Positions 46,806-61,397 of a stretch of DNA of 63,069 nt are shown piece by piece (within the stretch, counting starts at the first letter, position 1; every line of letters begins with the position of its first letter). The stretch comes from Clostridia bacterium (GTDB lineage: Bacteria > Bacillota > Clostridia > UBA1381). The notes under the pieces were generated by a model. It was not told the origin of the DNA, did not search any database, and saw only the letters and a list, made by a program, of their open reading frames with translations. Location of the stretch: positions 1 through 63,069 of the forward strand of contig JAZNIV010000001.1 in NCBI GenBank assembly GCA_045577675.1, read 5' to 3'. The position numbers and the translations under genes were made by a program.

Positions 46806-47204
46806 TTATGCTGCAAATTTGCTCCTTCCTTTAGAAAGAATTTGTCTGCACGCAATTTCAAATTCACTAAGTTTTACAAAGTTATTCTGTCCGCCGGTAT
46901 AATCATGTGTATTTTTTGCCTCACGCACAAGAACATTGTTATACCAGTTTTTGTCATATCTCACATCACCGATACTGAAATACATACACCGGTTGTCCTC
47001 GCTGCATATAAAGCCGGAAATCTCATAATACCCTCTGATAAAAACTTTCAGCATATATCCGCTGTCCTTAAGCTGGGCATTGATTTCTGACCGTATATTT
47101 ATTGCAAATTTCACATAATCCTTTGCCGGTCTGTTCTCAATCGGTTCAAAGTTATAGTTGTGCCACTTTTCAATATTTTTTGTCTTATACATTTCTTCCT
47201 CCAT
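46806..47204 (-). CDS. Hypothetical protein (mobile element)
   Basis: 132-aa ORF. The likely start is the second Met (47192) behind GGAGG. Ends in ...SKFAA. Confidence 0.6.
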   Translation of the reverse strand: MEEEMYKTKNIEKWHNYNFEPIENRPAKDYVKFAINIRSEINAQLKDSGYMLKVFIRGYYEISGFICSEDNRCMYFSIGDVRYDKNWYNNVLVREAKNTHDYTGGQNNFVKLSEFEIACRQILSKGRSKFAA

Positions 47205-48012
47205 TCTTTACATACCACTCATCAAGTATTTTCCACAGCATTGTTTCACACTGTTTCAATGTGTATTCTTTTGGGAAATAACCCTTGAGCCGTTTTTGGT
47301 TTATCGAAATATTCTTTTCCTTTACAGTCTCATCAAGAATTTGATGCAGTGCCACTGTGTCCAGCCTTTCATTCTCCGCCAGTTCGCGTATGCTGTGCGC
47401 TTGTTTGTAGTTCACCGTACATTCCTCCGCTTCAATATGGTTATTTACCATATACTGCGGTCGAATCTTCAAAAAGGACAGCTCAACGCCGCCGGTTAGG
47501 GATATGATTTTTTTATCCACCTTATCAAGGAGCTGAAAAATCAAATTTGTCAGTCTGATATATCTGCGCGCATTTCTGCCGCTTATATCGTTTTGTATTC
47601 CCAATTCCTCCTCGCTCCACTTCTGGACATCATGTCCGGAAGTGCGCTGCCCCTGATGCTTAAGTGCCTCATATTTCAATCGATAAGCGTAGGCTTTTTC
47701 GCTCGGCAGAAGATTTTCTCTTTGTATATTGCTGTCCACAAGCAAAATTGCCGCTTCATCATCATCCAGCCGATACACAAATGCCGGTATCTCATCAAGT
47801 CCGGCAAGCTCGCACGCGCGTTTTCGCCTATGCCCCGATATGATTTCATACTTTCCGTTTTCTATCGGACGCACTAAAATGGGTATCAGCACACCATACT
47901 TTCCGATACTGTCCGCAAGCTCATACATTTCCTCATCATCGCATACATGATACGGATGTTCGGAAAAGCCCTCCAGCTTACCTATTTTTATTAATTCCGC
48001 TTTCTTATCCAT
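47185..48012 (-). CDS. ParB-like N-terminal-domain (nuclease/partition) protein
   Basis: The track ORF extends to 48048. I prefer the ATG at 48012 (MDKKAELIKIG), preceded by GGAGG. ParB box GHRRKRACELAG. Confidence 0.8.
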   Translation of the reverse strand: MDKKAELIKIGKLEGFSEHPYHVCDDEEMYELADSIGKYGVLIPILVRPIENGKYEIISGHRRKRACELAGLDEIPAFVYRLDDDEAAILLVDSNIQRENLLPSEKAYAYRLKYEALKHQGQRTSGHDVQKWSEEELGIQNDISGRNARRYIRLTNLIFQLLDKVDKKIISLTGGVELSFLKIRPQYMVNNHIEAEECTVNYKQAHSIRELAENERLDTVALHQILDETVKEKNISINQKRLKGYFPKEYTLKQCETMLWKILDEWYVKNGGRNV

Positions 48013-48081
48013 TACTACCTCCAAATATACGCAGCAAGAGGACACCAAACGGTATCCTCTTGCTGTAAATTCAAGACTTTT

Positions 48082-49062
48082 TTACGCCGCCAAACCATAA
48101 AGCTTCGAGCCCTGCACATTCAATTTCAGCTGGTCTCGCATACCCTCAAGCAGCGTAAAGTTTTCGTCTATTCCTGATAAATTCTGTTTTAAAAGACTTT
48201 CGTACTCTTTCTTTTTCCTCTGCAGTTCTTCGATTTTCAGCGACCAGCGGTCCAGTATACGCTGTGAGCTGTTACCGTTTCGTATGAGCCTTGAAATATT
48301 TTTCTGATATTCCTCAATCTCGCGGCCCATATCAAAATAGAACTCATGCGCCATTTTCTTCCTCTGTGTTTCATCGTCAGCTACATACATCGAATTTGAG
48401 CTGATATATTTTGCATTTCTGCCATCCGCATAAACAAACAGATTTTCCTTTGCCAGCAGTTCAAAAAAGGTTTCAAGAAGGTCTATCTTATGCATATAGT
48501 CCTTTGGCACAAAATAGTGATGGCCTTTGGCTGAAATGCTGATTGCATGCAGTGACGCCATATACTTTTCAACCATATTTTCAATGCTGCTGTTGGAAAC
48601 GCAATCACGATAAAGGGAAAAACGATTGTTTGCCTCATCAAAATATTGAATAACCCTGCTGTCACGGCAAAGGTCATAACCTGAAAGCTGCATTATACCC
48701 ATTTCCTTATCAAGCGTAATATTAGCAAGCTTTCGGTAATTATTTGTACTGTTCATCAGTGTTTCTTCAACAAGTTCGCGCGACAGAATATTGTTGTCAC
48801 CGCGTTTGTTATCGCGGCAATAAATTTTGAGCACTTCATTTCCCTCCTGCTCAATCCTGTCATAAATATTGCTTGTTGCACTTTTGAACGCGTCCGTGAT
48901 CGACCCTTTTTCTGAGACACTAACGGGGAATCCTATCTGTTCGCATATTTCCTTTACTCTTTCCGTTTTCACAATAAGTCTTGGGAAAGAATAATACATA
49001 TACTTTCCCATAATCTCCGACTGCTGACCGTTCTCTGTGTTAATAATCATAAATTTAGACAT
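48082..49062 (-). CDS. Hypothetical protein with a C-terminal coiled coil (mobile element)
   Basis: 326-aa ORF, ends in ...LYGLAA. No motif recognised. Confidence 0.6.
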   Translation of the reverse strand: MSKFMIINTENGQQSEIMGKYMYYSFPRLIVKTERVKEICEQIGFPVSVSEKGSITDAFKSATSNIYDRIEQEGNEVLKIYCRDNKRGDNNILSRELVEETLMNSTNNYRKLANITLDKEMGIMQLSGYDLCRDSRVIQYFDEANNRFSLYRDCVSNSSIENMVEKYMASLHAISISAKGHHYFVPKDYMHKIDLLETFFELLAKENLFVYADGRNAKYISSNSMYVADDETQRKKMAHEFYFDMGREIEEYQKNISRLIRNGNSSQRILDRWSLKIEELQRKKKEYESLLKQNLSGIDENFTLLEGMRDQLKLNVQGSKLYGLAA

Positions 49063-49081
49063 ATGTTTTCTCCTCTCAAAT

Positions 49082-50143
49082 CTATGCTGCTCTTAGCCGC
49101 AGTTTTTTTGCAGCCATATAGTCGTCTATGCCGTTATAGCGCGGGTTCCAGTTATATTCTGTATACTCCACACCCATATCAGCAAGACAATCTTTTATTC
49201 TTTCGACAGCAGCTTGTACATTTACGTTTTTTCGTTTATCCATATCAAGAACAAGATTTACCCTTTTAATATCCATATCAGATATCGTTCCGGCAAGGTG
49301 GTCTACTGCATTCACTCCGGGAACTGCAAGAAACAGCTTGCCGCCTGACAGCACACTTGAAATATCGCCTTTCATCGGTCCCTCAGTCAGATATGCTGTT
49401 TTTGAAGATGTGTCTCCGACAACATGAACCCAGCTTTTTACACCTGTTCCTCCCGGATAACCGTTGGTCGAAAACCAGCGAAATTTCTTACCTTCGCCGC
49501 TTGCCGGATCGAGCCGAACCTGCAAGCCTTGAATGTACCCATCCTTATCGCACACCGGTATCAGGATTCCGCCGTATTTGTTGATATACATTTTCCGGCA
49601 GCCGTCTTTATCCCGGTAAAAGCCCGGGATACCGTCAAGATCGTGCTTTTTTTCCAGCTCCTTTATCACCCTTTCCCGATATACGGACTCCATCGGCATA
49701 CTTTTATACATAAACCTATAGATCTCGTTAAAGGTCAGTCCCCTGTTAATAAGATTGTTATAGTGTTTGGGATGAAGTTTTAACATATTTAATAGGTCAT
49801 AATAAACATTGTGCCGCTCTTTAAGACTTCTTATCGGTTTTTCAGGTTCCGGACAGACAGCAGGTATCGGCTCGTCATTATAAAGCCGCTTTAAAGTTTC
49901 ATAAGTCTCTTTATTACTCAGTCCGTAAATCTTGGCATAAAGCGAAACGCTGTTGCCCTTTTCATTACACCGAAAGCAGTGGAACTGCTCCTTTGCTCGA
50001 TTGAGTCCGAGATGGTATTTGCTGTCGCCGCAGAAGGGGCATCTCGCCTTAAACTCTGCACTGCGGCTTTCATACTGATACAGCTTTATACCGCAGCGCT
50101 TCGCAACCTCAATAATATCAAAGCTCATATATTCACACATCAT
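49082..50143 (-). CDS. DNA primase-like protein (CHC2 zinc finger plus Toprim-like domain)
   Basis: 353-aa ORF. CPFCGDSKYHLGLNRAKEQFHCFRCNEKGN aligns with the DnaG zinc finger. Toprim-like TEGPMKGD and VLDMDK. ATGA overlap with the upstream gene. Confidence 0.8.
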   Translation of the reverse strand: MMCEYMSFDIIEVAKRCGIKLYQYESRSAEFKARCPFCGDSKYHLGLNRAKEQFHCFRCNEKGNSVSLYAKIYGLSNKETYETLKRLYNDEPIPAVCPEPEKPIRSLKERHNVYYDLLNMLKLHPKHYNNLINRGLTFNEIYRFMYKSMPMESVYRERVIKELEKKHDLDGIPGFYRDKDGCRKMYINKYGGILIPVCDKDGYIQGLQVRLDPASGEGKKFRWFSTNGYPGGTGVKSWVHVVGDTSSKTAYLTEGPMKGDISSVLSGGKLFLAVPGVNAVDHLAGTISDMDIKRVNLVLDMDKRKNVNVQAAVERIKDCLADMGVEYTEYNWNPRYNGIDDYMAAKKLRLRAA

Positions 50144-51861
50144 GCTGCCTCCTTCATCTGCTGTCCGGTTTTTGCCTGCACAGTCAGCGGCATACGTTTT
50201 GCAAATGCAAGTATGACTTGATTGGACATAGCATCAAGACCTGCTGTGATACTCTCTGCATTATCTATGTAGGTCGGATAACAAAGGCCGGTGAGGTTCT
50301 GTAAAAGCTTAGACACCTCCAGTCCCGCCTTGATTTTCTCTGAGTTTGATATCCAGCGATAGTCCTTGCCGTCATAGGTGAAACGGAACGTATCCTTGAT
50401 TTCGCCCGTGGATTTAACCACCTCAAAAAGCCGTATTGCCGCGTGATTCATTTTGAGCTTTGACAAGGTGATTTCGGCACGTTTTGCTTCATACTCCTGC
50501 AATGCAGCAATGATTTTTTGAAGCCCGGAAATCTGTTCAAAAAGCGCTGTATGCTGATTCTCCAACTTTTCAATCGTCTGCATTTCCTTCTCCGTATTGC
50601 ACATAGCCTCAACTTTCGCAGAATAAATTTCTATCTGCTTTTGCAGTTCTGAAAGTTCTTTGTACTCTTGTTCGGAAAGATTTCCACGGCTGATTTTGCT
50701 GTCTTGTGCGTCTGCATTTTTCAAACTGTCGATCTCTGACTGAACTTTTTTAATATCGTCCGCCTTATACTTCTCAAAAACAGCCATGCTCTGCCTATCC
50801 ATTTCTTCAAGCTTTCTGACAGCTTCTCTGGCAAGCTGTCCCTCCTCCCGCACTGCAAGAACGTCTTTTTTGAACGCAGCGATTATCTCCCTGATATTAT
50901 CCTCGGTAATCACTGTACGGCAGGTAGGACATACTTTGCCCACCTTGAGATTTGCAGCCTGTGCCTCGTATGATTTATATTTCTGCGCCAGAACATTGAG
51001 CTCCGTTTTTGCCTTCATAAGCTCTTTTGTGTACTTTGACTCATAGCCTTTTGCCTTTATCTCGGCAAGCTTTTGATAAAGCTCCTGTATTTGGAAAGCG
51101 TTTCCGGTCTGGGGTTTTGCTTTCATCGCTTCTATATCAATTCCCCGGTACTGTTTTTCCTCCAGTTCATTTTTACGGTTTACAAGACTTTCAAATTCCT
51201 TGATAACGGAGTCAATAGTATTCTCCGCCTCTGAAAACCGTTTTTTGAGTGCGTCTATCTGCCCTTCCAGATGAAGTGCATTTTCATTCAGCTCACGAAT
51301 TTCTCTCCGCTTATCCTTTATACACACTTCAGGTTCGGCAAAATCCTCCGCCTCCAGCAAAGTTTTAGAGATTTCACTCAAGCGGTCAAGTATCTCATTT
51401 TTCGGAATACCCGGCATGAGTTTTTGCAGAAATTCTTTTCCGTCGCCCGCCAGCTTTTCAATAAAATACAATGGGTTAAGAATTGACAGAAAGACATTTT
51501 TCTCCGCAAACACCGATGCCATATCCACCTGACGCATACTGTGCCCGTCAAGCATCGCTGATGACTCGGAGCCTGATTTTGTACGCAAAAGATTGTGTAC
51601 CTCTCCGTTTTCATCGGCAAAACACACCTCGACCGACATTTTATCAGCATTTGGATTTTTCAGCCTGTCACATGAATTCTCACCCCAAAAGGGTGTTCCG
51701 CAGAATGCAAAGCTTATCGCGTCGGCAATAGTAGTCTTTCCTTCGCCGTTTGCGCCTATAATATATGTCACCTTATTCATATCCGCTTCATATGGCTCTA
51801 AAAAACGTTTGAAACCCTCCATTTTCACTTTTAAAATAGTAATTTCTTTAATTTTGTCCAT
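50140..51861 (-). CDS. Rad50/SbcC-like AAA ATPase with a coiled coil and a CxxC hook
   Basis: The track ORF extends to 51891. The likely start is MDKIKEITILKV (51861) behind GAGGAGG. Walker A GANGEGKTT, mid-coil VCPTCRTV and C-terminal YIDNAES. Confidence 0.75.
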   Translation of the reverse strand: MDKIKEITILKVKMEGFKRFLEPYEADMNKVTYIIGANGEGKTTIADAISFAFCGTPFWGENSCDRLKNPNADKMSVEVCFADENGEVHNLLRTKSGSESSAMLDGHSMRQVDMASVFAEKNVFLSILNPLYFIEKLAGDGKEFLQKLMPGIPKNEILDRLSEISKTLLEAEDFAEPEVCIKDKRREIRELNENALHLEGQIDALKKRFSEAENTIDSVIKEFESLVNRKNELEEKQYRGIDIEAMKAKPQTGNAFQIQELYQKLAEIKAKGYESKYTKELMKAKTELNVLAQKYKSYEAQAANLKVGKVCPTCRTVITEDNIREIIAAFKKDVLAVREEGQLAREAVRKLEEMDRQSMAVFEKYKADDIKKVQSEIDSLKNADAQDSKISRGNLSEQEYKELSELQKQIEIYSAKVEAMCNTEKEMQTIEKLENQHTALFEQISGLQKIIAALQEYEAKRAEITLSKLKMNHAAIRLFEVVKSTGEIKDTFRFTYDGKDYRWISNSEKIKAGLEVSKLLQNLTGLCYPTYIDNAESITAGLDAMSNQVILAFAKRMPLTVQAKTGQQMKEAA

Positions 51862-51896
51862 AAGCTTCCTCCTCTTAAAATATGATTGCACCGTTA

Positions 51897-52667
51897 TTAA
51901 GCTGCTATATCATAACCCGTTATTATGTTATATGCTCCGGCTTGATTTTTTCCCTTTCGTATCCGCACATTCGTAATTCGTGTACCGTTTTGAAGCCGAT
52001 TGTCCACGCCTTGCATATATGCCTTATAGCGCGTCCCATCGCGGCTTAGTATCAGTGCGCTGTTTTCATCACGCACCTCAACTGCATTTACTTCAAATAC
52101 AGGATGATCTTCTGTCGTTTTAGACTTCGTATTATCTGTCTGTTTTGGTTTGTCGGACGCTGCGTTTGAGAATAGTTTATCAACCGTTTTATTATATATC
52201 TCTGTCAGCTTTTGCTGTCCGCTGTCGGTAATATAGTAGGTTCGTCCCCACTGCTTAACCGATACATTTTCTGCATTGAATTTATACAGATAGCGTCCGA
52301 TATTCCATTTGACAGCACATCTTTTGAAGGAGTCAGACAGTCCGCCCTTGACAGGCTCATGCTCTGTATTCTCTGCACCGTCGGTTTTGCCTATCCATTC
52401 CTTCAGGTCTTCATCATAGATATATATGGTACAAAGCTGCGCATATATCGGCTTGCCTTGATCGTCTATGCCTTTCCATTCACGGTAGTCGTCCTTCCAT
52501 CGGTTTTGACCAACTACCGCGTCAAGCCTGTCGGCAATCGCGCGTGCATCCAGGTATGGTACTGCTATTCCGGTCAATTTTTCCTTATTGATATTCTGCA
52601 GCCGCCACTTTACATCGCTTGACGGAAACGGTTTGCCAAATTCCTCGAAATATTTGTTCTCAGCCAT
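51897..52667 (-). CDS. Rad52/Sak-like single-strand annealing protein
   Basis: 256-aa ORF. FPSSDVKWRLQN..VPYLDARAIADRLDAVVGQNRWKDDY resembles the Rad52/22 family N-terminus. Confidence 0.65.
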   Translation of the reverse strand: MAENKYFEEFGKPFPSSDVKWRLQNINKEKLTGIAVPYLDARAIADRLDAVVGQNRWKDDYREWKGIDDQGKPIYAQLCTIYIYDEDLKEWIGKTDGAENTEHEPVKGGLSDSFKRCAVKWNIGRYLYKFNAENVSVKQWGRTYYITDSGQQKLTEIYNKTVDKLFSNAASDKPKQTDNTKSKTTEDHPVFEVNAVEVRDENSALILSRDGTRYKAYMQGVDNRLQNGTRITNVRIRKGKNQAGAYNIITGYDIAA

Positions 52668-52676
52668 AATTTCCTC

Positions 52677-53339
52677 CTACTTCCGGTTTATAAAATCCTG
52701 CAAAGTTTGTCCGTTGGGAATAAGCACATCGGAGTAATAGAAATCCGGTTCTTTTTCCTTTAAAAATTCGAGCATCGTACGGTATTCCATATTAAGACGT
52801 GTATTCTGCGGCGTATAGTAGTCGTTGTTATCCGGCATTGTAAAAATATAATACGGCATGTTTTCCAACTGCCACAGATACTTCACCGGCGGCAGCGCAT
52901 TACTGCCGATACACATGCTGAAATCCATAACATTTGAAAAAGGATATTTATACAGCCTTGTATCTTCCTTTAAAATTCCCATATCCGCCACCGTAACCTT
53001 AACAGATTCTACCTTCCCGTATCTGTCAAGCCAAAAGCCGTAGATAAGCCTCGGTATCGGAAAGTCCGTATACCCGGTTCTTTCATAAACCAAATTCATT
53101 CTCCTTGCTTTTAATTCCAGCGCAACAAACCGCCTTAATGTATTGGTTTCCCTATATGCAACACAGCCATCCGGCAGGACTCCGGTTTTGCACTCGGTCA
53201 TCTCCGATGACTTATTTAATATATCGCAAAAAGTATTCATATCAATAACCTTATGCTTCTTCCGCCGTCCCGCAGTATAGTCAACCTCAACATTCAGATC
53301 ATCGTTTACACAAAAATTCATTCCTATCAAATCATTCAT
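52677..53339 (-). CDS. Putative prokaryotic E2/UBC-like protein
   Basis: 220-aa ORF. Flap-plus-Cys motif YPFSNVMDFSMC(143)IGSN at about 52905-52943, similar to HPN[IV]..G.IC of E2 enzymes and to prokaryotic E2 families linked to E1/JAB. Confidence 0.45.
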   Translation of the reverse strand: MNDLIGMNFCVNDDLNVEVDYTAGRRKKHKVIDMNTFCDILNKSSEMTECKTGVLPDGCVAYRETNTLRRFVALELKARRMNLVYERTGYTDFPIPRLIYGFWLDRYGKVESVKVTVADMGILKEDTRLYKYPFSNVMDFSMCIGSNALPPVKYLWQLENMPYYIFTMPDNNDYYTPQNTRLNMEYRTMLEFLKEKEPDFYYSDVLIPNGQTLQDFINRK

Positions 53340-53947
53340 AATGCTGCCTCCAATGTTTCCGGCATATCAGCGTATTGCATTTTAAGTTCACGAAGTTTTC
53401 TTGTATATGCGTCAAAAATCGTTATCAATGCGATAACCACACCCGTCAAATTGCAGCAGCCCATGTTATAATCCAGATATATATGTATTGAGCTGGCATA
53501 TTTATGATTGATTTTTGTCCGCATATAACACCCCATTCCACCGCATATATAGCAATCAGTATTATAAAGCCATCTTTTAACAAAATCCGCCATTTCGCAC
53601 CTTTTCATTCGGTACTCCTTGCCGGATATTTGTCTATTTTTGTAGAGTTGGTACAGTCTGCGGTAATATTCGGTCATATCGGTACTTGAAAAGAAAAACT
53701 CGCTGTACAAAGCTTCGGAATCTTCATCAAAATTCCCGTTTTCATCCCGCATATATATTACCTTTTCCTTTACAAACTCCGCCGCATCATATAAATGTTC
53801 CATTTCTGTTTCATAATAGCTTTCAATATCTGCATCAAGCTGCGCATACGCTTTGGCAACACTTATCCCGCCTGCATCGTATGCCTCCTTCATAGCCTGG
53901 AGGATATTAAAAAAGGCGCTAATATCCGTGCTGCATAATTTTTCCAT
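53336..53947 (-). CDS. Hypothetical protein (mobile element)
   Basis: 203-aa ORF with an ATGA overlap with the E2-like gene. Cys-rich patch CYICGGMGC..GCCN. Confidence 0.6.
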   Translation of the reverse strand: MEKLCSTDISAFFNILQAMKEAYDAGGISVAKAYAQLDADIESYYETEMEHLYDAAEFVKEKVIYMRDENGNFDEDSEALYSEFFFSSTDMTEYYRRLYQLYKNRQISGKEYRMKRCEMADFVKRWLYNTDCYICGGMGCYMRTKINHKYASSIHIYLDYNMGCCNLTGVVIALITIFDAYTRKLRELKMQYADMPETLEAAL

Positions 53948-53956
53948 AACTGCCTC

Positions 53957-54265
53957 CTAATAGTATGTTCGTTTACCCGAAAAGATACCTTCGGCTCTGC
54001 GTATAATGTCAAACAGCTTACCGGCAGAATCCAGTTTCGGACAGATCGTTTCCTCAAAATACTCCATATAGTCCTGCAGGTCATCGCAGGTGAATTTTAA
54101 AAAATCCAAATCACCCACTTTGAAATCCTTGTCATTTACCATTTGTACTATAATGGTATCGTGCAGATACCGGAATCCCTTACTGTATTCCCTTTCTTTT
54201 TTAGGTCTACTCCTCAGCTTCACTATGCTGTCGTAGAAGCTCTGTTTATTTAATTCCATTTCCAT
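53957..54265 (-). CDS. Hypothetical protein (mobile element)
   Basis: 102-aa ORF with AAAGGAG 9 nt upstream of the ATG. Confidence 0.6.
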   Translation of the reverse strand: MEMELNKQSFYDSIVKLRSRPKKEREYSKGFRYLHDTIIVQMVNDKDFKVGDLDFLKFTCDDLQDYMEYFEETICPKLDSAGKLFDIIRRAEGIFSGKRTYY

Positions 54266-54279
54266 TACATTTTCTCCTT

Positions 54280-55638
54280 TTAAGACAATCTTTTCACTCC
54301 GTCAGCAGTCAAAATATTAAAAATCATTTTATTGACCTTGGTTTCTGTCAGCGTGTTGTTCTCGTGATCAAACCACTTTTTTGTATTCTTTACCACTCTG
54401 CCCTTTATAACGTGCGGATGGTCGCAGTCCATGTACCCATTTATCAATCCGCTTCCGCCTATCAATCCGACCTGTCCTACCGAAAGCGGCAGAAGCGGTC
54501 GCTTTTCTACAGCGTCAATGCGGCTTTGCTCAAACAACATATCAATAGATTTTGACCCGGCAAGCTGTCTTTTAAGTTCTCCCACATTAAATTCGGTACC
54601 CTTAAAGACCTCTACCTTCTTTTCCCTATCAGGAATACGGTAGGTAAGCGGTTTCAACTCCGATATAAACGGTATTTTTTCCGGCAGCATCGCATACTGC
54701 GAAAGTATTTGAGCCTGTTCGCTTCCGTCAGCTTTTGTCTTTTTTACACCGATTATTGCAATCTGTTTGAATTTTGAAAATTCCTTATCCATAAAGCGGA
54801 ATACCGAAATATTTTCGAAATTATCACAGATGATACGGCATATATCCCCTGTCAGGCGGTAGTATGGAATAACATAGATCATAATCCCGTCTGTCATAAG
54901 CTGATGAATGCTCTCGACCAGAAAGCGTTTTTCATGACGCGCTCTGCCATTTTCATTTATAACCGACAGATACGGCGGATTTAAAAACAACACATGAAAC
55001 GCTTCCGAACTGATATGCGAATAGAAATAGCTGCCAAACCCCACGCGGTCAAGGCGCGTTTCCGCTTCCTCTGCACGGCTTCTGTCAAGTTCAATACCAT
55101 ACGTAACAGCATTTTCCTGCATCGCCAGCATATTAAGCGCCAAACCGCAGCCGCAGCACGGGTCAAGCATATTGATTTTCTCTTTCGGGAACGTCAGACC
55201 GGCTTTAATCAGCTTGATATGCTCCAAGTCGGTCGGATAATATCCGAGCCGGATATTATTCATCAAGCGCCCGACTTTTGATGCGTCTGTCGTCTGTTCC
55301 GGTATCAATCCGCGCATATGCCGAACTGCTGCTATCAATTGTGTATAATCCGGCGTCATAAGGTTGAATTTCCTGACGGCCGGATACAGCTTTGCAGCAA
55401 ACTCAGCTCCGTCCTGAATATCGCATTCGCAAAAAAGAAGCCTTAGCGCCTGTACATTTTCCGTCAGTCCGGCTTTCATGCTTTCAAGCTCTTTATATAC
55501 CTCCTGCGCGCTTTTCAGATTATTTCTCCCGCGATATACCTCTATCGCATTACGCTTCACAGGCATCGCTTCAAGCATACCGTCGAGGCTCCTGCCAAGC
55601 TCTGCAAATCTTTCGAGCACATAATAACTTTCTGACAT
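54280..55638 (-). CDS. N6-adenine DNA methyltransferase (orphan; no cognate nuclease seen)
   Basis: 452-aa ORF. Motif I LDPCCGCGLAL, GIELD, and motif IV FLNPPY (residues 218-223). Confidence 0.75.
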   Translation of the reverse strand: MSESYYVLERFAELGRSLDGMLEAMPVKRNAIEVYRGRNNLKSAQEVYKELESMKAGLTENVQALRLLFCECDIQDGAEFAAKLYPAVRKFNLMTPDYTQLIAAVRHMRGLIPEQTTDASKVGRLMNNIRLGYYPTDLEHIKLIKAGLTFPKEKINMLDPCCGCGLALNMLAMQENAVTYGIELDRSRAEEAETRLDRVGFGSYFYSHISSEAFHVLFLNPPYLSVINENGRARHEKRFLVESIHQLMTDGIMIYVIPYYRLTGDICRIICDNFENISVFRFMDKEFSKFKQIAIIGVKKTKADGSEQAQILSQYAMLPEKIPFISELKPLTYRIPDREKKVEVFKGTEFNVGELKRQLAGSKSIDMLFEQSRIDAVEKRPLLPLSVGQVGLIGGSGLINGYMDCDHPHVIKGRVVKNTKKWFDHENNTLTETKVNKMIFNILTADGVKRLS

Positions 55639-55821
55639 TTACGCAGCCCTCCTGAGCTCCTGATATATATTTCTCTCAACTCTGCGTATATGTCTGGCTC
55701 GCTGCAGGTGCGGTTTTCCGTCGGCGCCGATCGTCTCAACGCTTTCCGTCACCGTTGTGACCGTTTTATCCATTGTCATAACAACCTCTTTGTTTTGGGT
55801 AAATATCATATTTTCTCTCAT
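55639..55821 (-). CDS. Small protein downstream of E1 (60 aa); role unknown, weak Ubl candidate
   Basis: The track ORF extends to 55872. I prefer MRENMIFTQNK.. (ATG at 55821) behind AAGGAG. Ends in ...ELRRAA. Its stop abuts the methyltransferase ATG. Confidence 0.45.
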   Translation of the reverse strand: MRENMIFTQNKEVVMTMDKTVTTVTESVETIGADGKPHLQRARHIRRVERNIYQELRRAA

Positions 55822-55864
55822 TTTTATTAACTCCTTTTTTAGAAATCTTTTCAGACTCATCTTA

Positions 55865-56584
55865 CTACGCAATTTTTTTCATCAGGTTTTTTCTTGCGGA
55901 AAACGCCACTCTCATGTTTTGCAAATTGCCCTCAATCAACAGGTAATACAGCATTGACACAATTGCCGCTGAAGCCATAACATTAGCAGCAATCGACTGC
56001 GGTGCGGATATACTGTGTTCAGCACAGGAAAGTTCGGACGGAAATTTTTCAATATCTGTTAAAATATCCGGATAAATACGTGCGGCCGGCTTTGAAACAA
56101 CGCGCCCGTAACGCTTTGCTCCGCATACAACCTGTCCTGTAAATTCACCGTTTCCGGAGTCGATGTAAATAAGGTTATCCATCGTGTTAAAAACATTATT
56201 GCACATTATTCTTGAACGGTTATTATCCACAGCACCAATCAGTATTCCGATAGGCTCTAAATCCCCGCTGCCTGTTTTCATACTCAGCAATTCACGCAAG
56301 CGTTCTTCGTCTTCAATATATTCGGGAACATATTCTGTTTCAATGCCGAACACACCCGAATACCTTGCCGCCATAACATTTGCTTTATTTTTGCCAACAT
56401 CATTGCCTGCAAAATTCTGTCGTATCAGATTTTTCTTTTCTACTGTGTCACCGTCTGCAATAACAATGCGTATATCCCGTTCAGACGCATATGCTATTCT
56501 GTAAAGATGCGGAATAACATATCCGCCCGTTCCGCCTGCACCTATAATAACAATATTTACAGGTCTGTCCATCTCCAGCTTCAT
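55865..56584 (-). CDS. ThiF/MoeB-type E1-like adenylyltransferase (adenylation domain only)
   Basis: 239-aa ORF. VIIGAGGTGGY, IADGDTVEKKNLIRQNF, DVGKNKA, GAVDNNRSR and IDSGNGEFTGQV. Confidence 0.85.
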   Translation of the reverse strand: MKLEMDRPVNIVIIGAGGTGGYVIPHLYRIAYASERDIRIVIADGDTVEKKNLIRQNFAGNDVGKNKANVMAARYSGVFGIETEYVPEYIEDEERLRELLSMKTGSGDLEPIGILIGAVDNNRSRIMCNNVFNTMDNLIYIDSGNGEFTGQVVCGAKRYGRVVSKPAARIYPDILTDIEKFPSELSCAEHSISAPQSIAANVMASAAIVSMLYYLLIEGNLQNMRVAFSARKNLMKKIA

Positions 56585-57888
56585 AACTGCTCCTCCTTAT
56601 GCTCGCCAACAATCGAAACAGCATCAAGCCAATAATCCGGAAAGGTATTTTTCCGCATTTCAAAAACCTCTGACGGATCTATTTCAACGAACTTGCCTCC
56701 CACCGAAATTCTTGTTCTGATCTGCGGGAAAAATTTATCCAGTCTGCCGATTACTGTATATATACGCGTTGCCTTTTCATCATCATTATCTATTTTAGAA
56801 AAGAATGCGCTCATTCTGTTATGCGAATGAATTTCCATGACAAGCGTGTATTCATCCTCAGGCAAATCCGGTAAAGCAGCCGATATTTCTGTCCCTGTAA
56901 CTCTCTGCTCAGGAACATACACCTCATATCTATGCCGCTGCTCCGACCAGTAAACCGCCGCCATCGCCTCTACTGCATAATCCTCGGTCACATAGCTTTT
57001 GAAGAAAGCGATTATCTGCTTCAAGATACACTCCGGTATCTTCGGCAAAGCCGGGATAAACCCGGCTCTTACCTTTTGATATACGTCTGCTTTTTGCGCT
57101 TTTGCAATAAACGCTCCTGCCTTCGTGTTTCTCACCTCATAAATGTTCCCATCATCAGACGGAACATAGCAAATCGCCTTTTTCTTTCCTATAGCGTCGG
57201 CAAGGCTTGTATATGCACCTTTGTATTCCGCCGCAAATCCTTTTTTCTTTGCAGCAACACAAGGCGTTATCTTGCATACAATATCCTCTTCCTTGCCGGT
57301 CTTTTTCTTGGCAAGACCATCAGTAAATTCTTTTGACTTTTCTATGTCCTTTTTAATGCTCGCAATGGTTGTTTTTTTCGGCTCTGAAATCTGCTTTGAT
57401 ACAGTACCGTACTCCACCTTCCATTTAACTGCCTGCGCATCGTCAAGCTCCGGGAAATCGTCCGACTTCTCGTATCTTAACTTATCAAAGGTAATTGAGG
57501 GATCTGCTATCTCCTCATTCGCCTTTCCGTAAACAAATACCGGCAGCTTATCCTTTAGGCTGCTCTTGATCTCTTCTGCTTTTTTCTCCTTTGCCGCGGC
57601 AACTGCTGCTTCAAAGGGATTATCGTCCTGCTCTGCGGAATTTTCTTCGGCAGCAGGCTTCGCCTCCGATATATCGGTTTGTAGGTCATTTATTTCCTCC
57701 TTCACAGGTTCAGGTGTTAATTCGGATTTGCTATTCTCCGGCGTTTTTTCCGGCTGTACGGTTTCTTTGACTTCTGATGAAAATATACTTTCCGCACCTC
57801 CGAACAAATCGTCTGCCATATCAAATCCGCTTCCCAAATCCAAATCTCCGCTTTCTCCGAAAATGTTCAAATTGTCTTTCTCCAACAT
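56581..57888 (-). CDS. JAB/JAMM metallopeptidase with an acidic low-complexity N-terminus
   Basis: 435-aa ORF. Exact HxHx7SxxD motif EIHSHNRMSAFFSKID (56788-56829). The N-terminal ~110 aa are rich in D/E/P/S. 4-nt overlap with the E1 gene. Confidence 0.85.
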   Translation of the reverse strand: MLEKDNLNIFGESGDLDLGSGFDMADDLFGGAESIFSSEVKETVQPEKTPENSKSELTPEPVKEEINDLQTDISEAKPAAEENSAEQDDNPFEAAVAAAKEKKAEEIKSSLKDKLPVFVYGKANEEIADPSITFDKLRYEKSDDFPELDDAQAVKWKVEYGTVSKQISEPKKTTIASIKKDIEKSKEFTDGLAKKKTGKEEDIVCKITPCVAAKKKGFAAEYKGAYTSLADAIGKKKAICYVPSDDGNIYEVRNTKAGAFIAKAQKADVYQKVRAGFIPALPKIPECILKQIIAFFKSYVTEDYAVEAMAAVYWSEQRHRYEVYVPEQRVTGTEISAALPDLPEDEYTLVMEIHSHNRMSAFFSKIDNDDEKATRIYTVIGRLDKFFPQIRTRISVGGKFVEIDPSEVFEMRKNTFPDYWLDAVSIVGEHKEEQL

Positions 57889-57950
57889 AAATTTCTCCTC
57901 CGTTTTTTTTACTTGTTTTTTGTGTCCCTATCGCTGAAGATATCACCTCC

Positions 57951-58283
57951 CTATGCTGCCATATCGCAAAGTGATACGGGCATTGGTGATATATGTGAAA
58001 GCCGATAATTACACCGGCTGAGTTTTTGACATATTTCCTCGCTCATATCCCTGTCGTCGGGAATGATATCGGCAAATGCGAGCGTATCGGTAATCATATA
58101 ATCAAGACTCAGTACGTGCCCTTCACGTTTCTTCTTCGCATAATAACAGGACAGAGCCGAACGCATATGGTTTTTTGCGATTGTTTCAAAGCTGTAAGCC
58201 TTCAAATCCTCACGCTCGTCGTACTCCTTGACTGCACGCAGAAACCGAAACACTACCACATCATAAAACTCTTCCTTCGGCAA
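57951..58283 (-). pseudogene. Sigma-70 region-2-like protein fragment, apparently 5'-truncated by the IS
   Basis: FYDVVVFRFLRAVKEYDEREDLKAYSFETIAKNHMRSAL resembles sigma region 2.1-2.3. The frame stays open upstream into the IS end, the track start is a TTG, and no region-4 HTH is present. Confidence 0.4.
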
Positions 58284-58288
58284 ATGCG

Positions 58289-59757
58289 AGTCTGTGAAAG
58301 AATTTCTGTAAATAGTAGAAAAGCAAGGTCTTCTATGATAAAATAAAAATCATAGGAGGCCTTAAATTATGGCAAAAGAGAAGAAAACAGTACACAAAGT
58401 ACAAATGACCGAAGGGAAAAGAAACATTATCCGTCAGTTGATTGAGGAGTATGATATCGAAACAGCTACAGATATCCAAGATGCTCTCAAAGACCTTTTA
58501 GGCGGAACTATCAAGGAAATGATGGAAGCAGAAATGGATAATCACCTTGGCTATGAGAAATCAGAACGCTCCGACAGTGATGATTATCGTAATGGGTACA
58601 AATCAAAACGAATTAACAGTTCTTATGGTAATATGGATATTCAAGTGCCACAAGACCGAAAATCAACCTTTGAACCTCAAATAGTGAAAAAACGTCAGAA
58701 AGACATCTCCGACATTGACCAGAAGATAATATCTATGTATGCCAAAGGCATGACAACCAGACAGATAGCAGATATTATAGACGATATATATGGCTTTGAA
58801 CCATCTGAAGGTTTTATCTCTGATGTAACAGATAAGATACTTCCACAGATAGAAGACTGGCAAAACAGACCACTCGACGAAGTTTATCCAATCGTCTATA
58901 TAGATGCAATACACTATTCTGTTCGTGATGAAGGTGTTATCCGCAAGCTTGCTGCTTATGTAATTCTTGGTATTAATACAAGCGGTATGAAGGAAGTATT
59001 GACTATTAATGTCGGTGACAATGAAAGCTCTAAATACTGGCTTTCTATCCTTAACGAATTGAAAAACAGAGGAGTCAAAGATATCCTTGTTCTCTGCGCT
59101 GACGGACTTACCGGTATAAAAGAAGCAATCGGTGCAGCATTCCCTAAAACAGAATATCAACGCTGTATAGTGCATCAAGTCAGAAACACTCTTAAATATG
59201 TGCCGGACAAAGACAGAAAAGCCTTTGCAACTGATTTGAAAACAATATACCAAGCTACAGATGAGAGAAAGGCATTGGAAGCCTTAGAGAGAGTTACAGC
59301 GAAATGGACACCGAAATATCCCAACACTATGAAACGTTGGAAGGATAACTGGGATTCCATTTCACCAATATTCAAATTCTCAACCACCGTCAGGAAGGTA
59401 ATTTACACAACAAATGCTATTGAAAGCCTGAATGCCACATACCGCAAGTTGAACCGCCAAAGAAGCGTATTCCCGAGCGACACGGCTCTTTTGAAGGCTC
59501 TATATCTTTCAACTTTTGAAGCAACGAAAAAATGGACTGTAACCATCCGAAACTGGGGGCAGGTTTACGATGAACTAAGCATCATGTATGAAGGCAGATT
59601 GCCTGAATAATTAAAAAAACACGTCAAAAGGTGGTATGGATTTTACACTTCCTCTTGACGTGCCTAAAATTTCGTGGTATACATAAATATAGTCGATAGA
59701 TTATTTTGCGGCTTAATTAATCAAGTAATTATCATAGAAGATCTGTATTTACAGACT
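58289..59757 (+). mobile_element. IS256-family insertion sequence
   Basis: Imperfect terminal inverted repeats: left AGTCTGT..TCTGTAAATA..TCTTCTATGATAA, right (reverse complement) AGTCTGTAAATACAGATCTTCTATGATAA. They enclose a single Mutator-type transposase gene. Confidence 0.8.
58369..59610 (+). CDS. IS256-family (Mutator-type) transposase
   Basis: 413-aa ORF with a GGAGG RBS. CADGLTGIKEAIGAAFPKTEYQRCIVHQVRN is the family signature. Confidence 0.95.
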   Translation: MAKEKKTVHKVQMTEGKRNIIRQLIEEYDIETATDIQDALKDLLGGTIKEMMEAEMDNHLGYEKSERSDSDDYRNGYKSKRINSSYGNMDIQVPQDRKSTFEPQIVKKRQKDISDIDQKIISMYAKGMTTRQIADIIDDIYGFEPSEGFISDVTDKILPQIEDWQNRPLDEVYPIVYIDAIHYSVRDEGVIRKLAAYVILGINTSGMKEVLTINVGDNESSKYWLSILNELKNRGVKDILVLCADGLTGIKEAIGAAFPKTEYQRCIVHQVRNTLKYVPDKDRKAFATDLKTIYQATDERKALEALERVTAKWTPKYPNTMKRWKDNWDSISPIFKFSTTVRKVIYTTNAIESLNATYRKLNRQRSVFPSDTALLKALYLSTFEATKKWTVTIRNWGQVYDELSIMYEGRLPE

Positions 59758-60282
59758 TTATTTCATACTCTCGGTAATAGCAATAGAACTGTGGGCTAGT
59801 AGGGTTGAAATTAAGGCTATGTCATTTCCTGATATATGGTAGATTTCTGTGGCATACATTTTTCTAAAAGAATGTGTACCAACTCTTTCAAGACCTAAAT
59901 AGTCACAAACTCTTTTCAGGTGCTTTGATACACCTCTACTGCTGATATTAAACAATTTACTATCTGGTTTTATGCCATTTTCTAATGCATAGGTTTGCAT
60001 ATATGTATATATTTCTGGTGATATGGTAAATGTTCTTACTTTCTTTGTTTTCTGCTCTCTGAAATTATTAAAATGGTATCTGTTACCATCTTTGACAAAA
60101 TCACAAAGCCTTATAGAAAGGGTGTCATTTATTCTTAAACCTGTATTTGCTTGGACTACAAAAACACTTGCTATCTGCTTATTGGGATAGCATTTCCCTT
60201 TTTCATCCTCAAACCCAAAAGTTATTGTTTCTATGATTTTTTCATATTCAGATTTTTCTAATGGTCTGCATTTTTTATTCAT
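59758..60282 (-). pseudogene. Tyrosine recombinase/integrase catalytic-domain fragment that ends before the catalytic Tyr
   Basis: 174-aa ORF. TGLRINDTL (Arg), HSFRKMYAT (HxxR) and LLAHSSIAIT (His), then ...ESMK-stop. The stop codon directly abuts the IS right end at 59757. Confidence 0.65.
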
Positions 60283-60442: not shown

Positions 60443-60853
60443 TTAAATATTATAACTGTCTAACATACTGCCTTTATCAAGAACATAAGTACAATCTAAT
60501 TCTTCAACCTTTTTCATTGTTATTGTCTTATCTTTTAATACCAAAGAATGATAGTTATGTATGCAAGTTTGAATACTGCCACCTTGTTCTGAATATACCA
60601 ACTGTTTTTTATCCCTATCAAACACCAGAAAAATGTTATCTGTAACCATATAATCTTCAGTATCTTCTTCATAAGTCATAAGGTCTGCATAGTGTATGTT
60701 TATATTGAGTTCTGGTAAATGATAAAAACTTGTAGGGCAATATATCTGATACTCATTTTCACTTTCTTCAATTACTTTACCACCCATAATATCACCAATT
60801 ATTTCTACTACTTCTCCAAGTTCATTATAAAGTTCTCTAACCTTGAATGCCAT
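60443..60853 (-). CDS. Hypothetical protein
   Basis: 136-aa ORF that overlaps the upstream gene by 17 nt. No motif recognised. Confidence 0.55.
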   Translation of the reverse strand: MAFKVRELYNELGEVVEIIGDIMGGKVIEESENEYQIYCPTSFYHLPELNINIHYADLMTYEEDTEDYMVTDNIFLVFDRDKKQLVYSEQGGSIQTCIHNYHSLVLKDKTITMKKVEELDCTYVLDKGSMLDSYNI

Positions 60854-61397
60854 AATCAGTACCCCCTTGTTTATTTATATATCTGTAAAGTGTAGTTTTG
60901 CTTATTCCTGAAATTGCTGTAATCTGTTCTACTGTCAGATTACCACTTTTATATAGTTCAATAGCCTTTTGTATATCTTTTTCTTTTGGTGGTCTGCCAA
61001 CCCTACCTTCTGCAACTGCTTTTTGATATGCAATCTGTTTTTTCTTTTCAAGCAAATGTTTATGTAGTTCCAGATATGCTTTCAGATTATTATAAAAATC
61101 TTCCCCAGAAAGAAAAGGCTCAATGCAACTGCATAATGAAATCTTTTTGTTTTTCAGCATTATAAATACCTTTATTAAATCTTCCATACTGTCAGCCAAA
61201 TCTTCAACTGACCTGACAACCAATCTGTCTTCTGGCTGAATAAGATTAAATAATTCATTCAGTTCTGTTCTTTCATTCCCATCCATATCAAAGAAAATAT
61301 TATTATCTTCTATTTCCATTTGTTCTATAAGGCTGAAAAGAGGTTGATTATTTCTCTTTTCTTCTCTATTGTTTTCTAAAACATAAGCCCATAACAT
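60837..61397 (-). CDS. Serine-recombinase (resolvase) homologue lacking the catalytic residues but retaining the C-terminal HTH; probably a DNA-binding regulator
   Basis: 186-aa ORF. WAYVLEN replaces YARVSTxxQ (Ser to Leu). VEDLAD replaces LDRLGR (both Arg lost). The C-terminus GRPPKEKDIQKAIELYKSGNLTVEQITAISGISKTTLYRYINK is a resolvase HTH_7-type motif. Confidence 0.65.
   Translation of the reverse strand: MLWAYVLENNREEKRNNQPLFSLIEQMEIEDNNIFFDMDGNERTELNELFNLIQPEDRLVVRSVEDLADSMEDLIKVFIMLKNKKISLCSCIEPFLSGEDFYNNLKAYLELHKHLLEKKKQIAYQKAVAEGRVGRPPKEKDIQKAIELYKSGNLTVEQITAISGISKTTLYRYINKQGGTDYGIQG

Follow-up and report, generated by a model that had tools for sequence, protein, structure and literature searches.

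The window analysed here is a stretch of 63,069 nucleotides from a Clostridia bacterium (contig JAZNIV010000001.1), and its positions 46806-58283 hold a mobile-element module of 14 open reading frames (ORFs), all co-oriented on the minus strand, as taken from the ORF listing and from stop-codon contexts read directly. The module, roughly 12 kb in length, is a Clostridia relative of the PRTRC (ParB-related, ThiF-related) cassette that is joined to a replication and recombination gene set (Table 1). Seven of the 14 translated ORFs end in Ala-Ala (AA), and the conservation and possible role of this ending are considered here. We found no published description of the feature in the literature on PRTRC, DUF6744, DUF6094 and Ala-tails on mobile elements.

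Ala-Ala C-termini in the window

The details reported in a first-pass annotation of this DNA, that is the seven AA ends, two near-misses (LEAAL at 53336 and KKIA at 55865), the codon pairs and two overlaps with Shine-Dalgarno sequences, each match the sequence. The seven tails are encoded by GCAGCA in four cases and by GCGGCG, GCAGCT and GCTGCG in one case each. The annotation had also placed these ends inside the element and in neither flank, and an AA end was indeed found in none of the 28 long ORFs in 1-46.6 kb and in none of the 6 to the right of 58.3 kb. The difference between 7/14 in the module and 0/34 elsewhere in the window has a Fisher p = 4.7e-5, and the binomial probability of at least 7 of 14 given p = 0.025 is 1.8e-8. 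In the related loci described below, AA closes 217 of the 519 non-identical ORFs of the module that are 100 aa or longer (41.8 %), and the last residue is Ala in 57.8 %, versus an AA end in 4 of the 160 ORFs that lie more than 3 kb outside the module (2.5 %; Fisher p = 5e-26). A host proteome equally rich in such ends had been named as an outcome that would speak against the idea, but flanking genes do not share the tail, and a general trait of the host proteome is ruled out by these two flanking counts (0/34 and 4/160).

Conservation of the C-terminus in related loci

A genome scan gave 42 related loci, nearly all from Clostridia metagenome-assembled genomes and with 35-99 % identity, a metagenome scan with the JAB protein added 51 and a viral scan one, which makes about 95 loci in all, from which 1274 ORFs were clustered; counts given below are of non-identical sequences. 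The AA end is kept in 41 of 42 Rad52 orthologues and in 38 of 41 primase-like orthologues (VA in 2), although the residues upstream of the primase tail are variable. SMC-like orthologues end in AA (36/47) or AG (11/47), and DUF6744 proteins of the loci in AA (34/45), CA (7) or VA (2). Among 120 DUF6744 homologues from protein databases (56-100 % identity) there are 113 with AA and 6 with VA, on tails that differ upstream (FGAAAA, VFGLAA, GAAMAA, DLPMAA, SQRAAA). The 60-aa family has AA in 15/19 members from the loci, and a profile search returned 101 full-length database homologues ending in AA (73), VA (12), IA (6), CA (3) or TA (2), with Ala as the last residue in 99/101. For the smaller families, the AA counts are 7/8 for the 132-aa family (mostly xEFAA), 11/12 for the 263-aa family, 10/10 for the 295-aa family, 5/5 for the 111-aa family and 5/5 for the element-encoded DnaN clamp, together with 10/20 for the sigma-like family and 8/20 for the 203-aa family, which forms two sub-clusters with xLEAA or LEVA as frequent ends. 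ThiF orthologues (n=47) end in VA (13), AA (11), TA (9) or IA (4), and in xA in at least 37/47.

Other families of the same loci do not have the tail. AA was found in 0/40 E2 and 0/7 ParB orthologues, in no JAB or 102-aa orthologue of the related loci, and never in the DUF6094 methyltransferases, whose orthologues end in LA (22), LS (14) or LT (3). The 102-aa family ends in two aromatic residues (FF, YF, YY, TY) and the DUF6094 methyltransferase family in [KR]L[A/S/T]; C-termini across this module are unusually constrained in general.

Loss of the ending in orthologues had been put forward as a result that would refute the proposal, yet AA is kept down to about 35 % identity: in at least six families AA or xA stays at the extreme end over 35-100 % identity, while positions -3 to -6 and the length of the tail vary. 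The residue at -3 is aliphatic or Phe in 71-100 % of the DUF6744, primase, Rad52 and 132-aa families, and in 110/220 sequences overall versus a background of 36 %. The 15.8-kb record L099 (MT835919), entered as an unverified phage under the name "Bacteriophage sp.", is a further module copy. Its primase ends IAAQ and its DUF6744 protein GTAW, so that the tail is lost or shifted in two families, and six other proteins keep AA. In the metagenomic copy L088 (9500-11700), the JAB and ThiF ORFs are fragmented and apparent pseudogenes; its AA-tailed genes are intact and near-identical to those of L078, and the decay is too recent to inform on the tails.

Tails of this kind might instead be a by-product of constraint on DNA or translation, through a GCWGC methylase or restriction site, the Shine-Dalgarno spacer or the termination context. 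GCAGC does occur in five of the seven window tails, and two tails lie in the spacer between a Shine-Dalgarno and a start codon, since the Shine-Dalgarno and spacer of the following gene coincide in part with the ends at 50140 (AAG GAG GCA GCA TGA TG) and 55639 (AGG AGG GCT GCG TAA ATG). However, a separate Shine-Dalgarno follows the other five, and translational coupling as a cause explains at most two tails, as the first-pass annotation had concluded and as the stop-codon contexts agree. The E2, JAB and methyltransferase genes are also equally tightly coupled and have no AA. Moreover, orthologue tails use 16 synonymous Ala-codon pairs, of which the commonest is GCGGCA and not a GCWGC sequence, and all three stop codons. 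This diversity of codon pairs rules out a GCWGC motif or methylation site and, with that of the stops, indicates that selection acts on the peptide end and not on DNA, which makes a by-product of this sort extremely improbable. The C-terminal AA is therefore shown to be a position-specific conserved motif that is selected at the protein level.

Genes and surroundings of the module

Table 1. Features of the module and its upstream boundary, with positions in the window
Position	Strand	Product	C-terminus	Basis
46806..47204	-	132-aa protein, function unassigned	SKFAA	no Pfam/NCBIfam match
47185..48048	-	ParB N-terminal-domain protein	GRNV	Pfam ParB_N 1.1e-19
48082..49062	-	DUF6744 protein	YGLAA	Pfam DUF6744 (PF20529) 1.9e-76
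49082..50143	-	primase-like protein (CHC2 Zn ribbon + DUF3854/Toprim)	RLRAA	Pfam
50140..51891	-	SMC/Rad50-like ATPase, zinc-hook-like motif	MKEAA	Pfam AAA_15, AAA_23, SMC_N, Rad50_zn_hook
51897..52667	-	Rad52-family single-strand annealing protein	YDIAA	Pfam Rad52_Rad22 5e-14
52677..53339	-	E2-like protein (Prok-E2_D / PRTRC_B-like)	no AA	Pfam Prok-E2_D 4e-4, NCBIfam PRTRC_B 1e-3
53336..53947	-	203-aa protein, function unassigned	LEAAL (one residue beyond AA)	ORF reading
53957..54265	-	102-aa protein, function unassigned	aromatic (YY/FF/YF), no AA	ORF reading, orthologues
54280..55638	-	DUF6094 methyltransferase	KRLS	Pfam DUF6094 (PF19587) 1.7e-104
55639..55821	-	60-aa beta-sheet protein directly downstream of ThiF	LRRAA	orthologue lengths, AlphaFold2
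55865..56584	-	ThiF/E1-like adenylyltransferase	KKIA	Pfam ThiF 4e-16, NCBIfam PRTRC_ThiF 1.4e-27 (below cut-off)
56581..57888	-	JAB/MPN metallopeptidase, acidic disordered N-terminus + conserved middle domain	no AA	Pfam Prok-JAB 3e-7, NCBIfam PRTRC_A 8.5e-18 (below cut-off)
57951..58283	-	110-aa sigma-70-region-like protein	CDMAA	weak NCBIfam sigma70-ECF match 7.5e-3
58369..59610	+	IS256/Mutator-family transposase bounding the module upstream		Pfam Transposase_mut 9.5e-116

Four module proteins have no family match in Pfam or NCBIfam. The ORF at 55639 most likely codes for 60 aa and not 77 aa, because AAGGAG precedes the shorter start and orthologues are 60-67 aa long. The transposase lies directly upstream of the module and truncates it there; the window appears to hold what is left of the element after separation from its upstream part. 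The transposase is followed by a truncated tyrosine-recombinase ORF of 174 aa (59758-60282, minus strand) and a resolvase/HTH_7 ORF (60837-61397, minus strand). The module has a GC content of 41-45 %, against about 33 % in the left flank, which codes for an AraC regulator and an oxidoreductase, and 29 % in the right flank, and this contrast fits a horizontal origin.

Related loci carry further genes upstream (L047 46-5993, L051 703-4186, L052 353-1543, L064 6801-8009). They encode the DnaN clamp, which ends in AA, a DUF3268 zinc-finger protein ending NKAA, a MoxR-type AAA ATPase with a von Willebrand factor A (VWA) protein, and single-stranded DNA-binding proteins (SSBs) with canonical D-D-x-L-P-F tails. 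SSB, MoxR-AAA and VWA genes are typical of the establishment regions of plasmids and integrative and conjugative elements (ICEs), and it is conceivable that some other reader of hydrophobic free C-termini docks on the tail, or that the tail is a signal for conjugative export; in either case it would serve the co-assembly or delivery of the replication proteins. Candidate readers would be a PDZ-like or other domain of the element, for example the N-domain of the JAB protein (about 180 aa, no detectable homologue) or the MoxR/VWA pair. Nevertheless, no domain known to bind a C-terminal AA was detected, no type IV secretion genes were seen beside the module, and AA is without precedent as a secretion signal, so we regard this role as quite improbable.

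The E1/E2/JAB cassette and the search for a ubiquitin-like protein

In the E2 protein, the motif YPFSNV..F.LC.G.N is conserved to at least 90 %, including its Cys at about residue 143, the ThiF protein has the conserved motifs GAGGTGG, DGD.VE.KNL.RQNF, VDNN.SR, GQVVCG and ELSCAE, and the JAB motif HSHN...S..D is invariant. Judged from these motifs, the E1/E2/JAB cassette looks catalytically intact. Against the NCBIfam PRTRC models, the ThiF, PRTRC_A and PRTRC_B scores of 96.6, 64.6 and 18.6 bits are all below the cut-offs of 144.75, 101.8 and 131.45, and no NCBIfam match to PRTRC_C, D, E or F was obtained among 10 scanned proteins of the module, every unannotated one included.

Canonical PRTRC cassettes have a candidate ubiquitin-like protein (Ubl) in PRTRC_C, which is probably Ubl-like, judging from its size, its alignment and the conservation of its C-terminal Gly in that alignment. 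In the aligned small PRTRC_C proteins of three loci (L044 9138-9362, L113 5373-5576 and L114 6337-6558) this Gly is at or near the C-terminus (VGxKG), and PRTRC_C of pMOL28 has five residues beyond it, as if it needed processing by JAB. The PRTRC_C hidden Markov model found no match in the window or in the Clostridia loci, and no beta-grasp protein with a reactive C-terminal Gly, such as Bil/Bub and SAMP systems have, was found in the module, where the sole small neighbour of ThiF is a three-stranded sheet ending in AA. The AlphaFold2 model of this 60-aa protein (predicted local distance difference test, pLDDT, 86.5) has three long beta strands and a flexible 10-residue tail and is not a beta-grasp; residues 51-60 are coil with a pLDDT of 60. 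Foldseek found no neighbour for it in the PDB and hhalign gave a probability of 0.1 % for its relation to PRTRC_C, that is, unrelated, and the model and both searches rule it out as the missing Ubl. The conserved domain of the JAB protein has no assigned function, and its profile had no match in PDB or Pfam. A Ubl fused to JAB in this N-domain and released at a "VRAG" cleavage site is likewise unsupported, because this motif falls within the part of the protein that is homologous to PRTRC_A, and the profile of the domain gave no Ubl match. The DUF6744 model (pLDDT 88) has a last block with pLDDT 58 and a helix predicted almost to the end, and it had no meaningful structural neighbour in the PDB, so function could not be assigned from structure. 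No gene for tmRNA was present in the window or in any related locus obtained.

By analogy with type II CBASS (cyclic oligonucleotide-based antiphage signaling system), the AA ends, or more generally the -A/-G ends, might be handles for the module's own ThiF, Prok-E2_D and JAB proteins, in a multi-substrate analogue of Cap2/Cap3 that works without a Ubl; we consider this unlikely, but a serious contender. E1 would adenylate the terminal Ala, E2 would take over the acyl group on its cysteine and hand it on to lysines of target proteins, and JAB would reverse the linkage. It is consistent with such a scheme that E1, E2 and JAB occur in every sufficiently covered copy of the module with their catalytic motifs conserved, that E2 and JAB are themselves never tailed, and that no Ubl was found in the module whereas canonical PRTRC cassettes have a probable one that ends in Gly. 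The last residue is the most conserved position of the tail and AG, CA and TA variants occur, and in type II CBASS the signature of conjugation is an operon partner that ends in a conserved Gly or Ala after a variable residue, an Ala-ended CD-NTase (cGAS/DncV-like nucleotidyltransferase) being among the conjugated proteins (PMC10097602). On the other hand, the penultimate Ala is far more conserved here than in CBASS, ThiF itself often ends in -A, and the E1 would have to recognise at least 10 unrelated proteins by a dipeptide alone, although the E1s known so far, Cap2 among them, make contact with the rest of the substrate as well.

Tails and cassettes outside the Clostridia module

AA tails are absent around homologous cassettes of B. 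cereus pCER270, Cupriavidus pMOL28, V. cholerae pW7G, Tunicatimonas and Leptolyngbya, which rules out the tail as a general trait of PRTRC or ThiF-JAB cassettes. The pCER270 cassette comes with Rad52, E2, JAB, ThiF and DnaN, yet has no AA tails, and in these five lineages the neighbours other than the Ubl do not have a terminal A/G signature, which argues against the ends being handles. A possible exception to tail-free cassettes elsewhere is that of the cyanobacterium Pseudanabaena, where two neighbours end in LAA, in favour of a handle. From this distribution, the tail is an innovation of the Clostridia module lineage, and the cassette family in itself can do without it.

DUF6744 recurs across phyla, in plasmids of Brevibacillus, Alicyclobacillus and Pseudanabaena and in Bacillus phage 0305phi8-36 (L107, L108, L109, L110). 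A MoxR-AAA/VWA pair lies beside it in all four loci and an SSB gene in the three plasmids, and the Brevibacillus and Alicyclobacillus loci also have DnaN, DUF6094 and large helicases. These neighbourhoods suggest an ancient "establishment/replication" gene set of plasmids and jumbo phages, of which the module in the window may be one branch.

An integrative element of Vescimonas fastidiosa pMM35_02 (L105, 6712-20760), with no ThiF or JAB within 27 kb, has Ala-ended products in 6 of 10 consecutive forward genes: a lambda-exonuclease (EEAA), RecD (RSA), AcrIIA9 (VSA), PcfJ (TAA) and two hypothetical proteins (VA, NA). This is a selected example without statistics, and it may hint that a terminal Ala is more widespread on mobile elements of Oscillospiraceae.

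Discussion

The reading that we favour is that the AA end is an ssrA-like (C-motif-1) degron used module-wide and read by ClpXP-type proteases, and we would give it about an even chance; ClpXP as the reader and a short half-life as the consequence are what we infer from the sequences. The dipeptide would be a portable recognition tag, fixed by selection on at least 10 unrelated proteins of one Clostridia mobile-element module, and the tailed proteins are the DnaN clamp, Rad52, DUF6744, the primase-like, SMC/Rad50-like and sigma-like proteins and a number of small ones. With its free Ala-Ala carboxylate, a flexible tail would dock in the axial pore of the host ClpX and lead to unfolding and degradation, or the tail could be read by another AAA+ protease that recognises ssrA or Ala tails. 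Replication and recombination proteins would then be present only during their synthesis, as in a burst that follows transfer or induction, and the untagged E2, JAB, ParB and methyltransferase would persist.

A degron is favoured, first, because at least 10 unrelated folds (such as Rad52, SMC, DnaN, primase and the 60-aa beta sheet) have only the dipeptide in common, and a pair of terminal residues shared by such folds suits a reader that sees the tail alone. The constraint on both terminal positions, VA as the main substitute (in the order VA > IA, CA, TA, AG), an aliphatic residue at -3 in the best-sampled families, like the L in LAA, and related cassettes that work without such tails all point to the same reading. 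The models of the 60-aa and DUF6744 proteins also predict that their tails are flexible. Native C-motif-1 degrons of ClpX include the -LAA of E. coli RecN, an SMC-like repair protein that is a ClpXP substrate (see the references of PMC5442325), and the -AA of Caulobacter CtrA, and LVA-type variants of ssrA are still good ClpXP tags. In the ssrA tag, recognition by ClpX depends mainly on the terminal Ala-Ala carboxylate (Fei et al. 2020, PMC7652416), and ClpXP substrates also include native proteins ending in Ala-Ala and RqcH Ala-tails with the same end (PMC7652416, PMC12723719). In addition, Moorella phage MTATph1 has a DUF6744 protein with the end LLEAA, and a scan of 174.6 kb of its 176.6-kb genome detected no homologue of ThiF, JAB or E2, nor did tblastn of the whole record detect a ThiF; a tail kept where no cassette was found would count for a degron and against a handle.

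Other observations weigh against a degron. The residue at -3 is E, K or R in the SMC (KEAA), 60-aa (GRAA), 263-aa (PKAA) and 295-aa (EEAA) families, which is less ssrA-like, and the final residue varies less than the one before it, as the 60-aa family and the AG, CA and TA variants indicate. This constraint on the last residue resembles the Gly/Ala signature of type II CBASS CD-NTases as much as it does the ClpX motif. Within the Clostridia module, tails are never found apart from the E1/E2/JAB cassette. Outside cassette-bearing modules, the primase and DUF6744 homologues are mostly without AA: primase homologues (about 30 % identity) on cassette-less plasmids of Clostridium, Clostridioides and Butyrivibrio do not end in AA, and neither do the DUF6744 homologues of Brevibacillus, Alicyclobacillus and Bacillus phage 0305phi8-36, so a link between tail and cassette is possible. 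MTATph1, in turn, is a single case with an AA background of 7/209 ORFs (3.3 %).

The handle scheme was kept because there is no Ubl in the module, because co-occurrence of tail and cassette is strict within the Clostridia lineage and because the last residue is the most invariant one, with AG variants. It is doubtful that the ThiF/E2/JAB trio has dispensed with a Ubl and acts on the Ala-Ala ends of up to about 10 co-encoded replication and recombination proteins, whether by linking them covalently to targets or to one another or by reversible capping of a degron. If E1 and E2 did reversibly cap a ClpXP degron, one set of enzymes would switch the stability of the whole replication module. All in all, the degron is more parsimonious than an E1 handle. 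The first-pass annotation had proposed both, a built-in degron or a handle for the element's own E1/E2 machinery, and its interpretation is supported in part: conservation and tail-free flanks favour the finding, and the choice between the two is not provable from sequence.

Should the tails be degrons, this would be the first case known to us of a mobile element that marks an entire functional module for destruction with one shared tag, and they would form a post-translational "regulon" that confines replication and recombination enzymes to a short window of time, which would be relevant to the establishment of ICEs and plasmids in gut Clostridia. If they are E1 handles, the Cap2/Cap3 principle, by which non-Ubl proteins are conjugated through a terminal Ala, would reach beyond a single defence enzyme to DNA-processing machinery made of many proteins, and the long-uncharacterised PRTRC-like cassettes would gain a substrate. 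Either way, the AA signature makes the function of the cassette directly testable.

Comparison with known systems

With the Bil/Bub operons, the module shares the trio of E1, E2 and JAB. Those operons encode a beta-grasp Ubl whose reactive C-terminal Gly is exposed by JAB (PMC10557695), unlike the module, in which no such Ubl was found. As in PRTRC systems (TIGR03733-03741), homologues of ThiF, JAB (PRTRC_A) and the E2-like protein (PRTRC_B) lie beside a ParB-domain protein on mobile DNA. However, canonical PRTRC genes have no AA tails, and the Clostridia module adds Rad52, SMC, primase, DUF6744 and the DUF6094 methyltransferase.

In type II CBASS, a CD-NTase, which is not a Ubl, becomes conjugated through its terminal Gly or Ala by the action of an E1/E2 protein, JAB reverses this, and conservation of that terminal residue is found only in operons with both Cap2 and Cap3 (Jenson et al. 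2023, PMC10097602). The three statements that the first-pass annotation had taken as established, on ClpXP recognition of a free Ala-Ala, on adenylation of C-terminal carboxylates by E1-like enzymes and on CBASS conjugation, hold in the light of this work and, for ssrA and ClpX, of PMC7652416. The module resembles type II CBASS in that E1, E2 and JAB are encoded with non-Ubl proteins ending in a conserved small residue, that there is no Ubl and that the enzymes are untailed. It differs in that E1 and E2 are separate small proteins and not a fusion like Cap2, and in its many putative substrates, its conserved penultimate residue and its context of replication and recombination and not of defence; no CD-NTase, other nucleotidyltransferase or effector was found in the module by Pfam.

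The tails resemble ssrA and C-motif-1 degrons and the RqcH Ala-tails of Firmicutes, with a free Ala-Ala, often an aliphatic residue at -3 and a tail that is predicted to be flexible and is independent of the fold. As with those degrons, the tail sits on DNA-repair and replication proteins needed at transient levels, and VA is tolerated. The ssrA tag and native degrons are, however, added co-translationally or found on single proteins, whereas here at least 10 genes of one module encode a conserved tail, with a charged residue at -3 in several families. There is a minority chance that the module represents a new Ubl-less, multi-substrate conjugation system instead, and the feature is best classed as native degrons of the ssrA type that a mobile element applies across a whole module.

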